A DNA stretch of 64,000 bases from Patescibacteria group bacterium UBA6017 (GCA_002429485.1 DIZX01000015.1:256197-320196), one strand, 5' to 3'. Counted from the stretch's first letter, positions 1,714-49,227 are shown. Numbers and translations: made by a program. Notes: generated by a model not told the origin, from the letters alone.

Positions 1714-1977
1714 ATGAACATTAGCCAACAACTTACCATTCGCGGCGTCGATAAGACCACCAAGAAGAGCTTGGAGGCCCGTGCCCGTCAGCGCGGCCTC
1801 AGCCTCAATGCCTACAATCTTGAGCTACTACGTCGCGACGCGGGCACCAGTCCCGCCCGGCCCACCAATGGGCTCGAGCGCTTTGCCGGTCTTATGCCCT
1901 TCGACCCCATAGTTGAGGAGACGCTGGCCGATCAGCGCCGCCCCACTCCCGACAAATGGGACAATCATGGCCTATAG
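1714..1977 (+). CDS. vapB: Type II antitoxin (VapB-like, ribbon-helix-helix/AbrB-type).
   Basis: An 87-aa basic N-terminus (MNISQQLTIRGVDKTTKKSLEARARQRGLSLNAY) directly upstream of a PIN gene and overlapping it by 11 nt. Confidence 0.6.
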   Translation: MNISQQLTIRGVDKTTKKSLEARARQRGLSLNAYNLELLRRDAGTSPARPTNGLERFAGLMPFDPIVEETLADQRRPTPDKWDNHGL

Positions 1978-2368
1978 CCAATCATTCGCCATCGATACCA
2001 GCACCTTTTCACTCCTGTTGCGCGGTGATGACGACGTCAGAGACCTAGTTGGCACGGCCGAGCTCGTAGCTGTCCCGATTATTGTTGTAGCCGAGCTGCG
2101 CGCCGGCTTCCTGCATGGCCAAAAAACTGCACAGTATGGTCCCATCCTCGATGACTTTCTCTCTGATCCCCACACTATCGTTTTGCAGATCACGGACGAC
2201 ACCGTACCGGTCTACGCCGAGCTCTACGCCTACGCTCGCTCCAACGGTAAGCAATTCTCCAATAATGACCTCTGGATAGGGGCGCTCTGCATCCAGCACA
2301 GCTATCCGTTGCTTACGCACGACAAGGACTTTGATGCCCTGCCCCAGGTACGTCGCGTCCGGGGATAG
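1967..2368 (+). CDS. vapC: PIN-domain ribonuclease toxin (VapC-like).
   Basis: ORF 1913..2368. The likely start is MAYSQSFAIDTS at 1967. The acidic residues are spaced as in a PIN domain (IDTS...D...D), and the gene is translationally coupled to the upstream antitoxin. Confidence 0.7.
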   Translation: MAYSQSFAIDTSTFSLLLRGDDDVRDLVGTAELVAVPIIVVAELRAGFLHGQKTAQYGPILDDFLSDPHTIVLQITDDTVPVYAELYAYARSNGKQFSNNDLWIGALCIQHSYPLLTHDKDFDALPQVRRVRG

Positions 2369-39705: not shown

Positions 39706-39735
39706 TTCGCCCTTGCCAGAGCGGATAAGCCGACC

Positions 39736-39765
39736 TTGACTATATCGCGCGAATCGGTCTAATAT
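39736..39765 (+). promoter_or_regulatory. Candidate promoter TTGACT-N18-TAATAT upstream of the small Cys-rich ORF.
   Basis: A hexamer match only. A TATCGCGC(G/A)A direct repeat at ~39742 and ~39772 overlaps or follows it. Confidence 0.3.
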
Positions 39766-39834
39766 ATCCCGTATCGCGCAACGGTTACGTCGTGCGTCGG
39801 ACGGGCTAAGGCCCACAACTTGAAGGGGAAGATC

Positions 39835-39942
39835 ATGATCGGACTGATCATGGAGTTCTTGGGCCGCTTCGGCTGCCGTTGCTACTGCGGGGGTTGCAAG
39901 GCCGACCGCCACTGCGGTGGCCCCATGTGCCATATCAGCTAG
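39835..39942 (+). CDS. Unannotated 35-aa cysteine-rich peptide (MIGLIMEFLGRFGCRCYCGGCKADRHCGGPMCHIS).
   Basis: An ATG preceded by AAGGGGAAG at 5-nt spacing. It has six Cys and two His, a TAG stop, and is followed by a hairpin. It is below the 60-aa cutoff of the ORF track. Confidence 0.4.
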   Translation: MIGLIMEFLGRFGCRCYCGGCKADRHCGGPMCHIS

Positions 39943-39966
39943 CGGCTCTGCCGCACCGCGCTACAG

Positions 39967-40010
39967 CTCCCGCCGGTGATTAACTTCACTGGCGGGAGCA
40001 TGCTATTTCC
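39967..40010 (+). terminator. Hairpin (12-bp stem, 8-nt loop) followed by a weak U-tract, downstream of the small ORF and glmS.
   Basis: CTCCCGCCGGTG-attaactt-CACTGGCGGGAG followed by catgctatttcc. Confidence 0.4.
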
Positions 40011-40183
40011 GGTGGATTGTCGAATATCTTTGTGATAGTCTGTACGTTATGAAGAGCATACGAATTCTCCTGGCAGCCTCAATTACCCAATCCGGGCTGG
40101 CGCTGCATACGTAGAAAATAGTTCACATCACCCTCGCAGCACAGCCCCGACCCCGGGGTCATTTTTATTAAGAAAGGAAGATT

Positions 40184-41482
40184 ATGCAGTTCTCGGACTT
40201 CGGCCAAAAATTTACCGCCCACTCAGGAATATTGGAGCTCATGGATGATCTGGGCCAAGCCTTGGCTACGGGCGATCAGGTGGCGATGTTTGGCGGCGGC
40301 AATCCGGCCGCCATTCCCGGCGTGCAGCGGACGATCGAAGACCACCTCACGACCCTTATGAAGCGCCCTGGCGGCGTCAATGGCTACCTGGGCAACTATG
40401 ATGTTCCCCGAGGCAACCCGGTCTTCATCGATACCGTCGTCGATTACCTCAACCGCACCATGGACTGGCAAATCACTCCGGCCCACATCGCCATTACACC
40501 TGGCAGCCAAACCGGCTTTTTCATGCTCTTTAATCTGTTGGCGGGGGACACCCAAGGCACCAAGCGCACTATCCTATTCCCGTTGGTCCCCGAGTACATT
40601 GGCTACGCCGATCAGGGCATTCAGGAGGGGATGTTTGAGGCCAACCGCCCCCGCATCGAAACCCGTGGCGAGCATACCTTCAAGTACGGCATCGACTTTG
40701 ATAACCTCAAGATCGAGCCCCATCACGCCGCCATCTGCATCTCCCGCCCCACCAACCCAAGCGGCAACGTGGTCACCGATGAAGAATTGGCGCGCCTCAG
40801 TGACCTCGCCAAGCAACACGACATCCCGTTAATTATCGATAATGCCTACGGCCTGCCTTTCCCCGGCGTCATAACCAATTCCGCCCACCTGCCAAAGTGG
40901 GACGAGCAGATGGTCTACTCCTTTAGCTTGTCGAAGGTCGGCTTGCCCAGCTCGCGTGTGGGTATCTTCGTGGCCAGGCCCGAGATCGCGGCCGCTATCA
41001 GCAAAGCCAACGCCATCCTCAGTCTCGCCAGCCCCACCCTGGGCCAGGCGCTCGGCACCTCATTGATTCAGGATGGCTCCTTGCAGCGCATTTGCCGCAA
41101 TCACATCCACCCGTACTACCGGGGCGCCGAACATTACGCCCAAACCGTGCTGGCCGAAAAATTGGCCGGCTTACCGTACCGCCTGCACGAGTATGAGGGC
41201 GCCTACTTCTTGTGGCTGTGGTTGCCGGAACTGCCGATCACCAGCAAGGAATTATATGGCCGGCTCAAAACCCGCGGGGTCATCGTGGTGCCGGGCGAGT
41301 ATTTCTTCCCCGGCCTAAACGATCCCAAGTGGGCCCATCAGCGCCAATGCCTCCGCCTCAACTTTGCCCGCCCAAAAGCCGAAGTCGACGCCGGCTTCAC
41401 CATCCTGGCCGAAGAAGTCCAGCGGGCCTATACGCAATCGTCAAAGTTATTAAATATTAATAAAAAAGCATTGATAAGTTAA
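40184..41482 (+). CDS. avtA: Valine--pyruvate aminotransferase-like class I/II PLP aminotransferase.
   Basis: MQFSDFGQKFTAHSGILELMDDLGQALATGDQVAMFGGGNPAAIPGV closely resembles the E. coli AvtA N-terminus. AAGGAAG lies before the ATG. Confidence 0.8.
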   Translation: MQFSDFGQKFTAHSGILELMDDLGQALATGDQVAMFGGGNPAAIPGVQRTIEDHLTTLMKRPGGVNGYLGNYDVPRGNPVFIDTVVDYLNRTMDWQITPAHIAITPGSQTGFFMLFNLLAGDTQGTKRTILFPLVPEYIGYADQGIQEGMFEANRPRIETRGEHTFKYGIDFDNLKIEPHHAAICISRPTNPSGNVVTDEELARLSDLAKQHDIPLIIDNAYGLPFPGVITNSAHLPKWDEQMVYSFSLSKVGLPSSRVGIFVARPEIAAAISKANAILSLASPTLGQALGTSLIQDGSLQRICRNHIHPYYRGAEHYAQTVLAEKLAGLPYRLHEYEGAYFLWLWLPELPITSKELYGRLKTRGVIVVPGEYFFPGLNDPKWAHQRQCLRLNFARPKAEVDAGFTILAEEVQRAYTQSSKLLNINKKALIS

Positions 41483-41522
41483 TAATAAGTTGATATACTG
41501 GAGACATAAATCGGAGCTCCCC

Positions 41523-41738
41523 ATGAGTGTCGTCAGTTTCTCGGTCGATAAACAAACCGAGATAGAAATCAACCAAATTGCGCTCGATGAACGCCGTTCC
41601 AAGAGTGATATTTTTCGCGATATGTACAAGTCTTACAAGTTCAACCGCACCCTATCCAAGGTCCAAAGCGTCGGCCGCGAGAGATTCTTGGCCTTGGGCA
41701 TCGAGTCAATCGATCAAGCCGAGGAATTCTTAGGCTGA
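41523..41738 (+). CDS. Putative ribbon-helix-helix antitoxin (CopG/Arc-like).
   Basis: ORF 41490..41738. The likely start is MSVVSFSVDKQTEIEINQIALDERRSKSDIF. It lies directly upstream of a PIN gene with an 8-nt gap. Confidence 0.5.
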   Translation: MSVVSFSVDKQTEIEINQIALDERRSKSDIFRDMYKSYKFNRTLSKVQSVGRERFLALGIESIDQAEEFLG

Positions 41739-41745
41739 GCCGGCT

Positions 41746-42192
41746 ATGAAACCCCTGAAGGTCGTATTTGATACCAATATCTATGTCATGGCCGCCGGCA
41801 TGCCCGGTGGTTACATTGAATATTGGATGGAACTGGTCCGACCACCCCAACTGAAATTCGAGCTGTATACCTCTCCCGCCATTTTGGCCGAGGTTCAAGA
41901 AAAATTAGAGCAAAAGCTGCAGTTTGAGCGGGCGCTGGCGGTGGACTATATTGAATCCCTTAAAACTATTGCCCGTGTGGTCAGTCCGACCATGGCATTA
42001 AACGCCGTCCCGGACGGCCCCGACGACAACCGTATCCTCGAGTGCTCACTTGAGGCTCGGGCCGACATTATTGTCTCGGCTGATAAGGATTTATTGCGCC
42101 TCAAAACCTTTGAGAGTGCGCAGATCACCCACCCGTCCAACCTTAAGTACATTTTCAAATATTTAGAGACCGAAACTAATCCCCAGACATGA
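41746..42192 (+). CDS. PIN-domain protein (putative toxin/RNase).
   Basis: KVVFDTNIYV is the PIN N-terminal acidic motif. The length is 148 aa. Confidence 0.7.
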   Translation: MKPLKVVFDTNIYVMAAGMPGGYIEYWMELVRPPQLKFELYTSPAILAEVQEKLEQKLQFERALAVDYIESLKTIARVVSPTMALNAVPDGPDDNRILECSLEARADIIVSADKDLLRLKTFESAQITHPSNLKYIFKYLETETNPQT

Positions 42193-42250
42193 CAAACCCC
42201 CGATAAAGGGCCTCGGGGGCTCGTCATCGGGGGTAGTGCGGCGGTATCGC

Positions 42251-42625
42251 CTAGTCGTCCAAGGACATCGCTCCGATAAACTGAACGGCGCTCCTGAACG
42301 CTCTCAGGGTCATCGTGACAGTTCCGTCATCACGTAGAGTGATGTCCTGGTAGGCATTTGGAATGCGCCTGTAGCAGGCGAGGAATTCCTCCGCCATCTT
42401 CTGGCTCACGTGTGGAGTGCGAGACCAGCGCATGCCGAAACCTTTGTGGTCGCCCTCGTGACCCAGCGGTTCTAGGCAGTAGGGTCCTCTAATGACTCCC
42501 GGGTGCCACATCCGCCAGCACTCATTCTTGCCGGCCCGGTCGTAGTCCTTCGAATGGGTTGTGTAGCGCTGCTCCCAATCCTCGTCGGTAACGCGCAAGG
42601 GTGCTTCTGGTGATGCAGTTGTCAT
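42251..42625 (-). CDS. Hypothetical protein (125 aa).
   Basis: ORF 42251..42793. The likely start is MTTASPEAPL at 42625, with GAGGGG 8 nt upstream and 17 nt after the stop of the upstream gene. No motif was recognised. Confidence 0.45.
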   Translation of the reverse strand: MTTASPEAPLRVTDEDWEQRYTTHSKDYDRAGKNECWRMWHPGVIRGPYCLEPLGHEGDHKGFGMRWSRTPHVSQKMAEEFLACYRRIPNAYQDITLRDDGTVTMTLRAFRSAVQFIGAMSLDD

Positions 42626-42642
42626 GGCGTGCCCCTCGTCTA

Positions 42643-43008
42643 TCAGTGAAGTTGAAGGTGTACGTTTCCTGTAGGGGCATCGGATGGAGCGACTTTGCTG
42701 AGAGCCAAGCGCACCAATCCAGCCTCGGCGGTTGATAGATGCCTTAGCCCGCGTCGCAGTTGGATGGAATCGATGATTGATCCATCCTGGCAATCAGTCC
42801 GGATATCCCAGTCCGAGTACTGGCTGATGGGTCTCCATTCCCTAGTCACGCGTTGGATCGCCCAACCGCCACTGTAGTGGAAAAGAACGCACGACTGGTT
42901 GTGTCGGCTTACTTCGATGCCTGTTACTGTCTTAACAGGTGTCTCAGTGAGCCTGTATCCATCAACCCGGTGGAGCTTTTCCAGCTCTGCTCGATGGTCG
43001 TTGGACAT
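42643..43008 (-). CDS. Hypothetical protein (121 aa).
   Basis: The ATG at 43008 has GGAG upstream. It forms a two-gene unit with 42251..42625. Confidence 0.45.
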   Translation of the reverse strand: MSNDHRAELEKLHRVDGYRLTETPVKTVTGIEVSRHNQSCVLFHYSGGWAIQRVTREWRPISQYSDWDIRTDCQDGSIIDSIQLRRGLRHLSTAEAGLVRLALSKVAPSDAPTGNVHLQLH

Positions 43009-43155
43009 AATAGGTACTCCATTCGGTCGGGGACGTGAGGAGCATCGACTATATCACTACAATACAAATAATTCTATTAGAAAAGGATATTCAGCTCATG
43101 ATTAGCGCGATCTATTCCGAGCTGGTCGGCCAAATTGTAGTTATATTGGTGGTAT

Positions 43156-44361
43156 CTAGGAGTAATCTTTTATCAGTCTCGCATAGTAATGCGCGCTCGG
43201 CCGAATCCGCCGGTTCATGGTTCTACGGTCCACCTCAATCAGCCCGAATTTTGGCCAGTAGCCCTCGTGCCATTCGAAGTTGTCGAGCAGACTCCAATAA
43301 AAATACCCGCGGCAATCTACACCTTCGCTCGTGGCTTTGGCGATGCTCTTGAGAGATTCCTCGATATACCAGCCCCGGTGTATGTCCGCCGCGTCAGCCA
43401 GGCCACTCTCTGTGATATACATCGGTTTGAGGTAGCGCGCGAGCCGGGCGAGTACTTCGTAGTGGCCCTCCGGGTGTAACTCCCAGCCCATGTCGCTTTT
43501 TTGCGCTAGCTTTCGGCGACCAAAACTGCGCTTGAGGTAAAACTGTACCCCCAGCCAATCAGAGTGCGGGGCCAACCGTTTCACGAAATAGTCGTTCGCC
43601 ACCTGCAACAATTGGTGCGTGGCTTCGAACAGTGTTTGGCTGGTACAAAAACCGACCTGAAACTCTGGATTCACCGTCTTGAGGGCTTCATAGGCCCGAA
43701 TATGAGCCTGCACCATACTGCGCCTCACCCGGGAATAACGGGTTGGACTATGCCGCTGCGGCGGCCAGATTCCTCGCACGTAGGCCATTGCCGAGGAGAC
43801 CTCGGGCTCATTGAGAGTCGTAAAGTGTGCTACATAAGGCTTCATAGCCGCGCCCATAGTGCGGGCATAATCCGCGAACCGCCGCACGACGGTCTCAGAC
43901 TCCCATCCACCCTGGGCCGCCGCCCACACCGGCAGCGTGAAGTGCCATAGCGTCACAAAGGGCTCCTGGCCATGATCCCGGCAGGCTTTGGCGACGTCGA
44001 CATAGTGGGCGATGGCCGCCTGGTCGTAAGTTCCTTCTTGGGGTTCAATCCGTGACCACTCCACCGAAAATCGGAAAGCCGTTAGACCCAGTGCTTGGGC
44101 CGTAGCCAGATCTTGAGCGTACCGAGTGTAATGCCCCGCCGCATCACCAGAGATATAGTTGGATTCAGATTTGGCCGCGGTTTTAATGTCGGGCCATACT
44201 GGTGACGGCCCTTGGCCATAACTTGTCCGATACGTGGCATTGGCCGCCAGTCCTGGGGCCGATTTCCGCTCCCACTCTGTCCAGTCATTGTGGTTGCCGC
44301 CCTCTACCTGGTGGGCCGCCGTCGCGCTTCCGAACAGAAAATTTGCGGGAAGCTTGTGCAT
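43156..44361 (-). CDS. GH1-family beta-glucosidase.
   Basis: FLFGSATAAHQVEGG, the acid/base TLNEP and the nucleophile YITESG motifs are present. Confidence 0.9.
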   Translation of the reverse strand: MHKLPANFLFGSATAAHQVEGGNHNDWTEWERKSAPGLAANATYRTSYGQGPSPVWPDIKTAAKSESNYISGDAAGHYTRYAQDLATAQALGLTAFRFSVEWSRIEPQEGTYDQAAIAHYVDVAKACRDHGQEPFVTLWHFTLPVWAAAQGGWESETVVRRFADYARTMGAAMKPYVAHFTTLNEPEVSSAMAYVRGIWPPQRHSPTRYSRVRRSMVQAHIRAYEALKTVNPEFQVGFCTSQTLFEATHQLLQVANDYFVKRLAPHSDWLGVQFYLKRSFGRRKLAQKSDMGWELHPEGHYEVLARLARYLKPMYITESGLADAADIHRGWYIEESLKSIAKATSEGVDCRGYFYWSLLDNFEWHEGYWPKFGLIEVDRRTMNRRIRPSAHYYARLIKDYS

Positions 44362-44369
44362 GGCCGGTG

Positions 44370-46178
44370 CTAATCCTCGCTCGCCGGCCGAATGTGCGTC
44401 ACATGCGCCGGGCTGAGGCGGAACAGCCCCTCGTCCAAACGAACCTGGTCGAAGTAGTGGGCCATAAAGCCGACCGATCGCGACAAAATAAATAGCGAGT
44501 TGAAGAATTCGGTGGCCGCCAGCGCTTCAAGTTGCTCGATCGAATAGCCTTCTTTTTCGGCCAACAAGTCCAGTAAGATGGCCGCCATGGCGCCATCCAC
44601 GTTCAGGATCAGATTACCCTTTTTGCGGGTAGTTTCGGCTTCCACACCCAGTGCAAATTTGGTGAACTTAGCCTGTTCCAGGCCGTCAACGAAGGTCAGT
44701 AATTTGGCCACGCGGGGGTCGGGGGAGTCGATACGGTATTTCTTGTGCCCTATGCCCAGAATGTAGCGCTTGTCGGCCGCGTAGGCCTCCACCAGCGCCG
44801 TGGGGGATACGCCAGTACTCACGCCTTCGAGCCAGGTCAGTGCGGCTTGGTTGACCGCTCCGCCGAAACGCGGGCCGATCGTGAGCAGTCCCGCCGCCAA
44901 AGAGCTCACCAGATCGCGCCCGGCCCTCGCCGTCACGATGGTATTGACCGCCCCCGACACGTACGGACCGTGATCGACTAGCAGTTTGAGTACATAATCC
45001 ACGAAGGCTTCGAGCTCGGCCGAGTGCACTTGCTTGCCCAAAAACATCGAGATTACAATTTTAGCGAAGGAATTATTGTCGGCCAAATCGAGTAGACTTT
45101 GATCCAGCACCTGGACCTCGCCGTCACCCATATCGTGCGAGATGGAGCTGGCTATTAGGCCGGCCTTGCGAGCCGACATGGCTTTGATCACCGGCGCCAG
45201 GTCGGCGGCCTCGACCGCTCCCGGCAATTCGGCCACGTACTGCGCAAACTCAGCAAAGGTGGTCGCACTCTTGGCGCCCGCCGCGCGCAAGGCGTCGCTC
45301 TTGGCCCGCGCCGATTCATCCACACTGGCTGCCATGGCCTTAGCATGGCCAAACTGCGGCGGCGTCTCAAACAGCTCGGCCACCGTGCCGGCGATGTAGG
45401 CCACCACCGGCTTGGTTACTGCGCCGCTGGAGATCATCTCCGCCAGCTCGTATTCATCGCGCCCGCCCAGCTCGCCGAAGTACACAATTGAAGTAGTTGC
45501 TGGGTCGGCCTCTGCCGCCGCAAACACCTCCTGCGGCGAGCTCATCGGAAACCGTTCGCCGCCCAACGCCAGCGAAAAGCTCAACGCGTGGCCGGTGGTG
45601 GCCACCAGCCGAATAATCTCACTCACCATGCCGCCGCTCGAGCTCACCACTGCTACCGAGCCGGACGTAAATAGCTTCGAATTCACCAGCTGTGGCGCCT
45701 GCACTCCGCCGATCGGACCGAGCTTCACCACGCCCGGTACTACTATGCCTACGCTGGCCCCGCCCGCTAGCCACACTCCTGCCGCGTTGGCCGTTTCGGC
45801 CAGCTCCAGCGCGTGCTTTTCGGGTAACCCTTCCGCGAACACCACCCCGCCCACCAGGGCTGGCAGTGCCTCGATGGCCTGCTTCGACGACGCCAATACT
45901 CGCCGCCCCGACGATAAGTTCAAAAATAAGTTCACCTGCTCGCTCAAGCTCGTTGGCAGCCGTCCCACGGCCGAATACACCGGTATCGTCACTTCATTTT
46001 CGCCAAAGAAGTAGCGCTCGCTTTTGCGCCCCGTAGCCACTATCGCCACTACCGACGGCGCGGTGCGACCCGCCAAAAAGTCGAAATCCAGTATCGATTG
46101 AATAATACCTTTGGAGCTTCCCAGAGCCACAATCTTGGGATCAAGCGCCCGCAGAGCTGAAATATTTAGTGTACTCAC
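44370..46178 (-). CDS. aclA: ATP-citrate lyase alpha subunit (CoA-binding/phosphohistidine domain plus citryl-CoA lyase domain).
   Basis: PPQFGHAKAM matches the ACLY catalytic His loop (QFGHAGA). GIGHKKYRIDSPDPRV matches the ACLY/citrate-synthase-like GIGHRVKSINNPDMRV. The length is 602 aa. Confidence 0.8.
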   Translation of the reverse strand: MSTLNISALRALDPKIVALGSSKGIIQSILDFDFLAGRTAPSVVAIVATGRKSERYFFGENEVTIPVYSAVGRLPTSLSEQVNLFLNLSSGRRVLASSKQAIEALPALVGGVVFAEGLPEKHALELAETANAAGVWLAGGASVGIVVPGVVKLGPIGGVQAPQLVNSKLFTSGSVAVVSSSGGMVSEIIRLVATTGHALSFSLALGGERFPMSSPQEVFAAAEADPATTSIVYFGELGGRDEYELAEMISSGAVTKPVVAYIAGTVAELFETPPQFGHAKAMAASVDESARAKSDALRAAGAKSATTFAEFAQYVAELPGAVEAADLAPVIKAMSARKAGLIASSISHDMGDGEVQVLDQSLLDLADNNSFAKIVISMFLGKQVHSAELEAFVDYVLKLLVDHGPYVSGAVNTIVTARAGRDLVSSLAAGLLTIGPRFGGAVNQAALTWLEGVSTGVSPTALVEAYAADKRYILGIGHKKYRIDSPDPRVAKLLTFVDGLEQAKFTKFALGVEAETTRKKGNLILNVDGAMAAILLDLLAEKEGYSIEQLEALAATEFFNSLFILSRSVGFMAHYFDQVRLDEGLFRLSPAHVTHIRPASED

Positions 46179-47365
46179 GCTGTTACCTCCAGCTCTTTTA
46201 TCGCCAACGGAATAATCGCCGCCAGCATCATTTCCGGCCCCGCTACCTCCCCCAGCAATCCTTCTCGCTCCAGGAAGCTGCGCATCATTGCCAGCCCCTC
46301 AACTTCGAACGGACCGCCCCGACGCACAAATACCTTGATACCTTGCTCGCGCATGGCCGCTTTGGCCTCGTCCAGCGCCGCAAGCACACCCTTGAACGTC
46401 GCCCGCACGTCGGTGAAGTTGGCTACTCCGCCGGCAATCACCAGCACCTTGCGCGGCGCCTTAGATTCGAGCATCAGCGAAATAATCTGCCGTGTGTAAA
46501 TTTGGGTTTCCTCGGCATTAGGGTTGCCGCTGTACTCACCGTAATTACCCAGTTCTTTGCCGCGCCCCTGATTAAACACCTCGTCCGCCAGCGCCACGCT
46601 CGCCCCGCCGCCGCTCAGTAGCAAGAAAATATTGCCCTGCGGGTTCAGTACCGCCAGCCGAAATGACGCCTGGCTTTGAGACGCCAGCTCTTCCACGGCC
46701 GCCGCCTGAGGCAGCGGAGCTGATGCCGTATAATCGCGAAAATCTTCCGGCGTCCAGCGTCCGTCCACAAAGAAGGCCGCCTCGGTATCTACCTCCACCG
46801 CCGCATCGAGTAGGCCCACTTTGCCGTCCATCACTACCAACGGGTTCACTTCCAAAAATGACCAGTAGTTATCATTAAAGGTCTTGGCGAGGAGCTGAAG
46901 TGTGTCCGTTGATACTCCCAGCGCCTCAGCCGCCCGTCCGGCTACCTCGGTCGTAAATACCGCCTGGCGAATTCCGTCCGCCGCATCTTCCACATTTACC
47001 CCGCCGGCCGCCGACCAGCTAATAATCGTGCCCGCCCGTTGGCGTTCGAACGCCAAATACCGTTCGGAATCTGCTGCGTGGTCCATCTGCGGCTCCACTA
47101 ACATAAATTCAAAACCCTTCGCCGCCAGCTCGGCGATATCGCCGCTCACTTCGGCTTTGGTGCGGCCCAGCTTCACCAGCCCCTTTTTGAAGCGCCCCTT
47201 CACTCCTTGATCCACTTTCACCACGTAGCTGCCGCCAGCCGCCAGCGAGTCCACCGTGGACTGCCAGTTGGCCTTCAGATCTATACTCACACCGCTATAA
47301 GCCGTGCCTAGTTCTTTAGCGAGGATTGTTTTGGCTCTGAATTCGGAAATTTTCTTGCGCGGCAT
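46175..47365 (-). CDS. aclB: ATP-citrate lyase beta subunit (ATP-grasp).
   Basis: ORF 46175..47449. The likely start is MPRKKISEFRAKTILAKEL at 47365, which parallels the ACLY N-terminus (KAISEQTGKELLYKF ... VVKPDQLIKRRGKLGL). A TATAAT lies ~26 nt upstream. Confidence 0.75.
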   Translation of the reverse strand: MPRKKISEFRAKTILAKELGTAYSGVSIDLKANWQSTVDSLAAGGSYVVKVDQGVKGRFKKGLVKLGRTKAEVSGDIAELAAKGFEFMLVEPQMDHAADSERYLAFERQRAGTIISWSAAGGVNVEDAADGIRQAVFTTEVAGRAAEALGVSTDTLQLLAKTFNDNYWSFLEVNPLVVMDGKVGLLDAAVEVDTEAAFFVDGRWTPEDFRDYTASAPLPQAAAVEELASQSQASFRLAVLNPQGNIFLLLSGGGASVALADEVFNQGRGKELGNYGEYSGNPNAEETQIYTRQIISLMLESKAPRKVLVIAGGVANFTDVRATFKGVLAALDEAKAAMREQGIKVFVRRGGPFEVEGLAMMRSFLEREGLLGEVAGPEMMLAAIIPLAIKELEVTA

Positions 47366-47433
47366 GGATTCTTCTCTACTTACGACAGGTATTATACCGT
47401 GATGGGTACTTAAATGTGCCATAATACTTACAT

Positions 47434-49227
47434 ATGGTGAAACCTTCAAGCGACTTCCTCGAAGACGAGGACACTGGGCAATCCGAACTCAGCTCGCAGT
47501 GGCAGCGTGCTCCGCTGTGGCTTCGTGGGGTCGGCTTAATCTTTGTTGGCGGGTTCTTGTTGGTGGGTAGCTTTGAGCTGGTCTACGCCGGTAAGATCTA
47601 TCCGGGCATTTCCGCCGATGGCGTTTCGCTGGCTGGTGCCACCCGGGCTTCCGCTGCCAAACAGCTCAATTCCAAAATTGATACCTTTTCCGGCGGCGTT
47701 GTCACCATCTCGAATGGCGACACCAATCTCCGCATCCCCGTGGCCGGTCTCGACGTGTCCTATGACACCAACAAAGCCGTCGATCTGGCCTACCAATACG
47801 GGCGCGAGGGGAGTTGGACCAACCGGCTTCATCAGCAATTACGCGCCCTTCTGGGCCGGGCAACCAACTTTTCGGCCTACGGCTATTCCGATACCCGTTT
47901 GGCCCCCTACGTGGTTCAGCTTGGCGATGATTTATCCACGCCGGTAGCCGACGCCAGCCTAAACTTTGACTCCGACAAGCCCCAGGTCACCCCGGCGCAG
48001 TCCGGCACCCGCCTCGATTATGGCCGCCTCACTCAGCTCGTTGGCGACCGGCTGTCCCAAACCTCTATCGACCCGATCCCCGCGCCCGTCTACCAGCTCT
48101 CGCCGGTCCTCGGCACCGATGCTCTCACGGCCGTCACCAACCAACTCGGCAGCTACCTGGCCGGTCCCATCACCCTCAGCTACAGCGGCACCGAAACCAC
48201 CATCGATCAGAAGACTATCATTTCGTGGATCCAGGTCGGCGCCCGCCCCACGAAGTTATTCCTTAACTCTCACGACCTAGCCGATTTATACCCGCCGCCG
48301 GCCGCGGCCAATCTGGGCTTGAGCAAGCCCGCCGTCGCCAAGTACGTTACCGATCTGGCGGCTCAGCTCGACCAAACGCCCCAAAACTCCGGCTTGGCCA
48401 TGAAGGACGGCGTGCTGGCTATCGTGCAGGCCAGCCGCACCGGCATCAAGCTCGATCAAGCCGACACTACCAGTGCCATCATCGGCAGCCTGGGTCGCAC
48501 CTCCGGCGACCGCCTCATCACTCTCAAGCTCGAGACCACCCAAGCCGCCGTCAACGAGTCTAATCTCGACTCGCTCGGCATCAAGGAGCAAATCTCGGAG
48601 GGCGAAACCTACTTCCCCGGCTCACCCAGCACCCGCCTCACCAACGTCCGCGCCGGCGCCAAGCGCTTCAATGGCGTCTTGCTGGCTCCCGGCGAAACCT
48701 TTTCCTTCGGCAAGCTCCTCGGCGCCGTCGACGCTTCCACCGGTTACGTCCCCGAACTCGTCATCCTCGGTGACCATGAGGAAAAGCAGTATGGCGGGGG
48801 ACTCTGCCAGGTATCGTCCACCGCTTTCCGCGCTGCTTTGGCTGCGGGCCTGCCCATTACCGAGCGCGTCAATCACGCTTTCGCCATTAGTTATTACACC
48901 TGGCCCTACACCGTCCCCGGTATGGACGCCACGATTTATTACCCCGCCGTTGATCTCAAATTCACCAACGATACCGGCAGTTACATCCTTATGCAGACCA
49001 TTATGAATGGTGTCGATCTCAAGTTTGACTTCTTTGGTACCAAAACTAAGACCGGCGTCATTCGCGGCCCCAACTTCGTCACTGGTACGAACGACGCCAC
49101 CCAACCTTCGCACACCGTCTTCTACCGTGACGTGCTCGACCTCGCAGGCAACGTCACCAAGACCGACACCTTCAATACCTACTACAAGTCGAGCAAGGAC
49201 TTCCCGGTTACCAAACAGTTCAACTAA
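47434..49227 (+). CDS. VanW-domain protein with an N-terminal membrane anchor.
   Basis: GGGLCQVSSTAFRAALAAGLPITERVNHAF...YPAVDLKF is VanW-like. A TM segment is present near the N-terminus. Confidence 0.8.
   Translation: MVKPSSDFLEDEDTGQSELSSQWQRAPLWLRGVGLIFVGGFLLVGSFELVYAGKIYPGISADGVSLAGATRASAAKQLNSKIDTFSGGVVTISNGDTNLRIPVAGLDVSYDTNKAVDLAYQYGREGSWTNRLHQQLRALLGRATNFSAYGYSDTRLAPYVVQLGDDLSTPVADASLNFDSDKPQVTPAQSGTRLDYGRLTQLVGDRLSQTSIDPIPAPVYQLSPVLGTDALTAVTNQLGSYLAGPITLSYSGTETTIDQKTIISWIQVGARPTKLFLNSHDLADLYPPPAAANLGLSKPAVAKYVTDLAAQLDQTPQNSGLAMKDGVLAIVQASRTGIKLDQADTTSAIIGSLGRTSGDRLITLKLETTQAAVNESNLDSLGIKEQISEGETYFPGSPSTRLTNVRAGAKRFNGVLLAPGETFSFGKLLGAVDASTGYVPELVILGDHEEKQYGGGLCQVSSTAFRAALAAGLPITERVNHAFAISYYTWPYTVPGMDATIYYPAVDLKFTNDTGSYILMQTIMNGVDLKFDFFGTKTKTGVIRGPNFVTGTNDATQPSHTVFYRDVLDLAGNVTKTDTFNTYYKSSKDFPVTKQFN

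Follow-up and report, generated by a model that had tools for sequence, protein, structure and literature searches.

Do two small genes that lie side by side next to a toxin-antitoxin module work together, with each other or with that module, or is their proximity accidental? This question is raised by a locus (positions 41490-43008) on a 64,000-nucleotide (nt) stretch of DNA from Patescibacteria group bacterium UBA6017 (GCA_002429485.1 DIZX01000015.1:256197-320196), the whole of which is referred to below as the window. Here, a gene for a ribbon-helix-helix (RHH) protein and a gene for a PIN-domain protein are followed, in convergent orientation, by two minus-strand open reading frames (ORFs) that we name ORF A and ORF B. 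A preliminary description of this DNA had proposed that the two ORFs form a cassette that is either associated with the toxin-antitoxin pair or constitutes a novel small two-component function. That proposal did not survive: ORF A has no homologue, and nine other genomic contexts of ORF B lack both a conserved partner and a PIN gene. The results presented below make it probable that the locus is a variable islet in which three accessory elements, the RHH-PIN pair, a unit built around ORF B, and ORF A, are independent of each other and do not constitute a linked system. The features of the locus, in window coordinates, are the following.

42251-42625, minus strand: ORF B, 124 amino acids (aa), member of an undescribed family of small soluble proteins.
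42188..42234, minus strand: GC-rich hairpin plus TTTGTCATG tail, resembling a terminator and forming the 3′ end of the ORF B unit.
42626..42642, minus strand: 17-nt spacer between ORF A and ORF B, bearing the GAGGGG ribosome-binding site of ORF B.
42643-43008, minus strand: ORF A, 121 aa, a lineage-specific orphan of uncertain coding status.
43009..43155, minus strand: AT-rich spacer (GC 0.47) from the stop of the glycoside hydrolase family 1 (GH1) gene to the start of ORF A; it includes the GGAG of ORF A, and the promoter of ORF A and ORF B is presumed to lie in it.
41471..41499, plus strand: promoter-like sequence TTGATA-17-TATACT with TG extension, matching the consensus at 10 of 12 positions; a putative promoter.
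41523-41738, plus strand: RHH (CopG-like) putative antitoxin, 71 aa (Pfam RHH_1, E 0.0024; PHROG CopG-like repressor, E 2.7e-4).
41746-42192, plus strand: PIN_3-family putative toxin (ribonuclease), 148 aa (PF13470; TIGR00305).
40184-41482: aminotransferase gene avtA (Aminotran_1_2), flanking the islet.
43156-44361: GH1 gene, flanking the islet.

The gene identities given in the preliminary description held up. The two ORFs are indeed placed between avtA and the GH1 gene, the PIN protein scores above the curated cut-offs of PIN_3 and TIGR00305 and has an RHH-like gene 7 nt upstream, and the minus-strand ORFs are separated by exactly 17 nt and preceded by a GGAG (7 nt before the ATG of ORF A) and a GAGGGG (6 nt before the ATG of ORF B), the only correction being that ORF B encodes 124 residues and not 125. 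Both small proteins were also rightly called unrecognisable, neither of them matching Pfam, NCBIfam, PADLOC or PHROGs, and it is not the case that both ORFs are core genes shared by all relatives under a housekeeping annotation.

ORF B is certainly a real gene, because it has homologues and because the ratio of nonsynonymous to synonymous substitution rates (dN/dS), calculated against its two nearest relatives, is ∼0.35, which reflects purifying selection. A word-indexed search of 5.8 billion proteins yielded six homologues that are 50-99% identical to ORF B, and when 1.84 billion cluster representatives were searched exhaustively with a profile, 19 matches were obtained, 18 of them genuine, all being single-domain proteins of 80-125 aa. 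Its codon score of 0.146, obtained with a codon model for which 31 long ORFs from the window served as the training set, falls within the range of real genes. The protein is 64% identical to its counterpart on contig L005, from a closely related organism, compared with 91% for the product of the adjacent glmS gene; together with the dN/dS value this indicates that ORF B is constrained yet fast-evolving. In an alignment of 22 family members H60, W67 and A78 are invariant, and C36, C50, H56, G62, F81, P89, L97, D100 and V103 are present in at least 90% of the sequences. The resulting family signature is C-x13-C-x5-H-x3-H, followed by a conserved IPN...L.DDGTV.MTL segment (DDGTVxMTL motif). Searches with the 22 members against Pfam, PHROGs and the sequences of the PDB gave no consistent match, and alignment of ORF B to JGI metagenome contigs found nothing. 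A contig that is 99.8% identical to the window (L013) has a Q19H replacement in ORF B.

The genomic contexts of the ORF B homologues carry most of the argument against a linked system. In none of the nine other contexts that we read is ORF A present, is any neighbouring gene shared or does ORF B adjoin a PIN gene. In three contigs (L003, L004 and L014) ORF B lies alone between gatC and ligA, a single fixed site in two species. Another homologue follows hrcA-grpE (L021), one is located among sortase, GH10, DUF218 and BipA genes (L106), one follows an unrelated membrane protein (L001/L002), and in L005/L006 ORF B is positioned between a gene resembling that of the beta subunit of ATP-citrate lyase (ACL) and the GH1 gene. 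The remaining homologues (L015-17, L018-20, L102-103 and L105) are embedded in tightly packed arrays of genes on the same strand. Pairwise comparison of all immediate neighbours of ORF B showed that none is related to another or to ORF A. Small cysteine-rich proteins with pairs of CxxC motifs are encoded just downstream of several homologues (L021 2853-3092, L015 5317-5556 and L104 593-886); these are mutually unrelated in sequence.

What travels with ORF B is its own 3′ end. When the window, L005 and L001, representing three contexts, were aligned, the conserved block was found to consist of the ORF B coding sequence plus the hairpin, ending ...ATCGGGGGTTTGTCATG, and in all three homology stops abruptly after GTCATG. 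On the other side of the gene, a leader of ∼50 nt is common to L005 and L001, whereas in the window the end of ORF A takes its place. The inverted repeat (42196-42234) folds at -33.5 kcal/mol (z = -4.9), a value that none of 200 shuffled sequences equalled. The tail motif occurs once in the window, elsewhere it was encountered only alongside close ORF B homologues, and it is absent from IMG/VR. The GC-rich inverted repeat reported in the preliminary description thus exists, but it is not a mere separator of the two convergent units: it is the 3′ end of ORF B and is kept with ORF B elsewhere. The simplest reading of these alignments is that the hairpin belongs to the ORF B unit and is terminator-like, and that it is positioned such that it could terminate the convergent PIN transcript too. 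By the same reading ORF B would be a self-contained transcription unit, consisting of leader, gene and intrinsic-terminator-like hairpin, that was either relocated or had its flanks rearranged. The last codon and TGA stop of the PIN gene (42188-42192; stop 42190-42192) are situated inside the tail that is conserved with the ORF B unit, which indicates that the RHH-PIN pair either adjoins the end of the ORF B terminator or was inserted precisely there.

The islet-like character of the locus, as proposed before, is borne out by the one closely related organism that was recovered (contigs L005/L006), whose flanking genes are 79-84% identical to those of the window at the nucleotide level. Its gene order is ACL-beta, ORF B, hairpin and GH1, followed by a convergent glmS that overlaps GH1; avtA, the RHH-PIN pair and ORF A are all absent from this site, and ORF B lies on the opposite side of GH1 compared to the window. 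The overlap between GH1 and glmS in L005 amounts to 14 nt (L005 3629-3642). In the window GH1 and glmS are 3.45 kb apart, the space being filled by avtA, RHH-PIN, ORF B and ORF A. In the presence/absence comparison called for in the preliminary description, every contig of the window's own organism, whether from GCA_002413465.1 or from several JGI, ENA and Logan samples, had the arrangement essentially unchanged, and the single relative differed. Relatives of GH1 in metagenomes (80 loci) were uninformative for presence or absence, the best being only 45% identical and none of the 80 having any of the genes that surround GH1 in the window. GC content falls to 0.43-0.52 over RHH-PIN and the spacer upstream of ORF A, with flanks of ∼0.6; because the window has a mean GC of 0.54, this dip speaks only weakly for a foreign origin.

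Whether ORF A is a gene at all is less clear. The sole match among the 5.8 billion proteins was an identical copy of itself, Pfam (E up to 10), the PDB and phage and plasmid collections contained no match, and the other frames of the region likewise gave nothing in Pfam and the phage and plasmid collections. Its codon score is 0.006 per codon, below that of every training gene (minimum 0.10) and near the mean of spurious ORFs (-0.02), and contrary to the neighbouring genes its GC content is lower at third (0.566) than at first codon positions (0.598). When the 530-nt stretch that contains ORF A was shuffled, 2-3% of the shuffled sequences had an ORF of 121 aa or longer, and so the length of ORF A by itself is only mildly unusual. 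In addition, contig L013 has a stop codon at position 38 (Q38*) and an H44Q replacement in ORF A (window 42877 and 42897). These data argue for the explanation that ORF A is a chance or decaying ORF in sequence that took the place of the ORF B leader after a rearrangement, the entire 42626-43155 region then being only the promoter and 5′ leader of ORF B. We give this explanation a considerable chance, although one that falls short of even. Speaking against it, the frame is the top scorer of all six, a GGAG at the right distance precedes an ATG start, 2-3% is a low figure all the same, the L013 differences are within 40 nt of the edge of that contig and may result from misassembly, and gene callers call the ORF in every assembly. 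We put the odds that ORF A makes a functional protein at roughly even.

In the reading that we favour, that of three independent elements, ORF A would be a young orphan ORF that replaced the ancestral leader of ORF B in this lineage, and ORF B would now probably be co-transcribed with it. No minus-strand consensus promoter was found in the 43009..43155 region, the promoter there being a presumed one. Like other orphan (taxonomically restricted) genes, ORF A has no detectable relative, shows an atypical codon signature and is confined to a single lineage; it differs from them in its tight operon-like arrangement with a conserved gene and its good ribosome-binding site, features that most chance ORFs do not have to this extent. 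Two other origins were considered and rejected: ORF A as a paralogue that has diverged from ORF B (hhalign against the ORF B family gave a probability of 0.1%), and ORF A as the remnant of another gene, for which no match was obtained by tblastn against the window and 100 other loci, with the other frames or in the phage and plasmid collections. The independence of the three elements is weakened by some of the above observations. ORF A is intact in all complete contigs of the same species, it combines the best-scoring frame and well-placed GGAG with a spacing of only 17 nt to ORF B, and the change at its 38th codon may be an artefact; ORF A may thus be a real partner of ORF B in this lineage. 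Moreover, the comparison of presence and absence at this site was made with a single related genome fragment (L005/L006).

If ORF B acts alone, what could it do? The family has four conserved candidate metal ligands (C36, C50 and H56, each in at least 90% of the 22 members, and H60 in 100%), and this Cys-Cys-His-His set most likely binds one zinc ion. The family proteins are hydrophilic with isoelectric points mostly of 5-6, which argues against a typical basic DNA-binding protein. The window protein contains the sequence H56-E-G-D-H60, and in this it is like the HExxH zinc metalloproteases. Membership of that class was rejected, since the glutamate is not conserved: E57 is replaced by K in two close relatives, P0004 and the L014 protein, and among more distant ones by D in P0010, P0017, P0018, P0019 and P0022, by G in P0015 and by N in P0024. 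The context of third ligand and Met-turn is also lacking, as is a match to a Pfam peptidase.

Part of the family is found in phage-like surroundings. Neighbours of the homologues in L015-20 match PHROGs for RusA, WhiB, a DNA methyltransferase, an HNH endonuclease, a tail-collar protein and a nucleoside deoxyribosyltransferase; the last of these has 18 matching phage records, of which 14 are Mycobacterium phages, the two closest among them. The phage-like loci have a GC content of 64-68% versus 45-60% for the chromosomal ones. In these respects the ORF B relatives resemble the small non-structural proteins of actinobacteriophages (the PHROG ‘unknown function’ or moron class): they are ∼100 aa proteins, ∼40% identical, that contain cysteines and histidines and no conserved enzymatic motif, and they are encoded in packed, GC-rich, same-strand arrays near RusA, WhiB, HNH and methyltransferase genes. 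They differ in that none of the 22 members matches a PHROG family and no sequenced phage has the ORF B family, and in that ORF B of the window is a chromosomal gene under purifying selection, outside any prophage.

Taking together the ligand signature, the small size, the acidity, the absence of a partner and the occurrence among non-structural phage genes, we tentatively propose that ORF B derives from phages and works on its own as a protein-binding modulator stabilised by zinc, a proposal to which we give rather less than an even chance. The gene would then be a stand-alone single-gene unit with its own terminator hairpin, encoding a small, soluble and mildly acidic protein; we do not think that it is an enzyme, a DNA binder or a component of a toxin-antitoxin system. 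Several results count against this proposal. Structure prediction, which the preliminary description had envisaged together with remote-homology searches, was carried out and gave poor models: with a six-sequence alignment AlphaFold2 (AF2) reached a predicted local distance difference test score (pLDDT) of 47.8 for ORF B, and of 40.1 for ORF A alone, and Foldseek returned nothing below E 0.4 when the ORF B model was compared with the PDB and BFVD. ORF B and its relatives have no match among the sequenced phages of INPHARED or in IMG/VR and PLSDB, the L102 array has almost no PHROG support, and the suggested phage link comes from neighbouring genes in a few metagenome contigs.

A more far-reaching version of the phage connection starts from the taxonomic distribution of the family. 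The sole match among the GTDB species representatives is L014, which is titled an uncultured Candidatus Saccharibacteria metagenome-assembled genome, and the split distribution of ORF B, found on Saccharibacteria-like chromosomes on the one hand and on actinophage-like contigs on the other, is suggestive. Saccharibacteria live as epibionts on Actinobacteria. It could be imagined that the ORF B proteins are zinc-binding effectors, not described before, whose genes are exchanged by actinobacteriophages and the Saccharibacteria-like epibionts of Actinobacteria, the chromosomal copies being domesticated phage genes at the interface of epibiont, host and phage. Published CRISPR-spacer data suggest that some predicted Saccharibacteria phages are targeted by Actinobacteria too (PMC10746230). 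The window and the named Saccharibacteria contig have no orthologues in common. We regard the exchange as unlikely. Should it be true, ORF B might manipulate an actinobacterial target or provide resistance to shared phages.

We consider it improbable that ORF A and ORF B constitute a novel two-gene module of this lineage, akin to a toxin-antitoxin system or serving as a small defence pair, in which ORF A was recently recruited or evolves very fast. The arrangement on one strand, 17 nt apart, with a Shine-Dalgarno site for each ORF, the fact that every complete contig of the species, across several samples, has the two ORFs intact and in identical form, and the position beside a toxin-antitoxin module in a variable site are what such a module would look like. 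It would, however, consist of a gene without homologue among 5.8 billion proteins, weak in codon signature and possibly present as a nonsense allele, and a gene whose nine other contexts lack any conserved neighbour and whose ancestral unit has its own leader. In addition, no known toxin, antitoxin or defence family is matched in Pfam, NCBIfam, PADLOC, PHROGs or the PDB sequences.

Very improbable, too, is that ORF B and its 3′ inverted repeat together make up a mobile cassette of the integron type or a similar one, whose site-specific capture would explain its varied positions: a discrete block of coding sequence and imperfect inverted repeat, with sharp boundaries in three contexts and on opposite sides of GH1 in two close relatives, would agree with this, but repeat and tail motif are single-copy in the window so that there is no array of sites, IMG/VR holds no match, the neighbourhood gene list contains no adjacent recombinase or integrase, the natural interpretation of a hairpin followed by UUUGU is an intrinsic terminator, and another clade keeps ORF B at the fixed gatC-ligA site in two species. 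The core sites of attC are RYYYAAC and GTTRRRY, and the tail GTTTGTC, as read from the sequence, does not fit the latter. Identity of the ORF B unit as an integron cassette or a miniature inverted-repeat transposable element (MITE) was rejected on the grounds of a single-copy motif and the missing core-site match.

As judged by its sequence, the third element, RHH-PIN, is a conventional toxin-antitoxin module of type II. The PIN protein matches PIN_3 (PF13470) over the whole profile (1-115 of 115; E 9.5e-13, 49.4 bits versus a cut-off of 27) and TIGR00305 (“putative toxin-antitoxin system toxin component, PIN family”; E 1.1e-12, 48.3 bits versus a cut-off of 29.15), and reading of the protein shows D9 (VFDTN), E49 and D112/D114 (SADKD), candidates for the conserved acidic active-site residues of the PIN fold, where such residues are expected; a tail of 29 residues extends beyond the domain. 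No close solved structure was found for it. The gene starts 7 nt past the RHH stop, and a small gene for a DNA-binding antitoxin directly upstream is what a type II toxin-antitoxin operon of this kind requires. The RHH_1 match, at 18.2 bits, remains under the Pfam gathering score of 20.5. The promoter-like sequence shares nucleotides with the stop codon of avtA; downstream of it come a GGAG ribosome-binding site (41513-41516) and then the RHH start. Two TTGATA hexamers, at 41471 and 41491, are 20 nt apart and are possible operator half-sites for an RHH repressor. In VapBC-type modules the PIN protein is an RNase toxin that is neutralised by its partner. By analogy with these families, the PIN protein would be an RNase toxin, and the RHH protein would neutralise it and repress the promoter at 41471-41499. 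The likeness to VapBC-type modules comprises the RHH gene just upstream of PIN with a 7-nt gap, the sigma-70-like promoter and the full-length PIN match; there is no notable difference, apart from the sub-threshold RHH match and the PIN stop inside the tail of the ORF B unit. A second PIN-like (VapC-type) ORF is present at window 1913-2368 on the plus strand, presumably part of what the preliminary description had counted as a first RHH-PIN pair, and BLAST detected no similarity between this gene and the one at 41746-42192. The RHH-PIN pair adds nothing new.

Some further observations concern the surroundings of the islet. One contig of the same organism (L011, JGI 3300013758) misses 35 bp within GH1 (window 43551-43585), due to which the gene caller splits GH1 in two; this may be a frameshifting deletion allele or an assembly artefact. 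The minus-strand region 44370-47449 contains two adjacent ATP-citrate-lyase-like genes (Citrate_synth_N with Citrate_bind, and Ligase_CoA with Citrate_synt), a pair that is kept in L005 and would be unexpected if the organism were a reduced Saccharibacteria-like bacterium. The gap between glmS and avtA (39706-40183, 478 nt) has no convincing ORF or Rfam match and could be a rearrangement scar or a regulatory region. Over the entire window (1-64000) no tRNA genes and no Rfam families at gathering score were found.

The useful outcome of this analysis is thus a negative one, in that the apparent cassette of ORF A and ORF B is an accident of gene order and hence is not to be pursued as a new toxin-antitoxin or defence system. 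ORF A is either a possible very young gene or a non-gene that annotation pipelines routinely call. The residual value of the locus resides in ORF B, which defines a tiny family that is absent from Pfam, PHROGs and the PDB and has a clear metal-ligand signature. If the split of this family between Saccharibacteria-like chromosomes and actinophage-like contigs corresponds to real gene flow, it would provide a concrete entry point into how epibiont, actinobacterial host and phage relate to one another.

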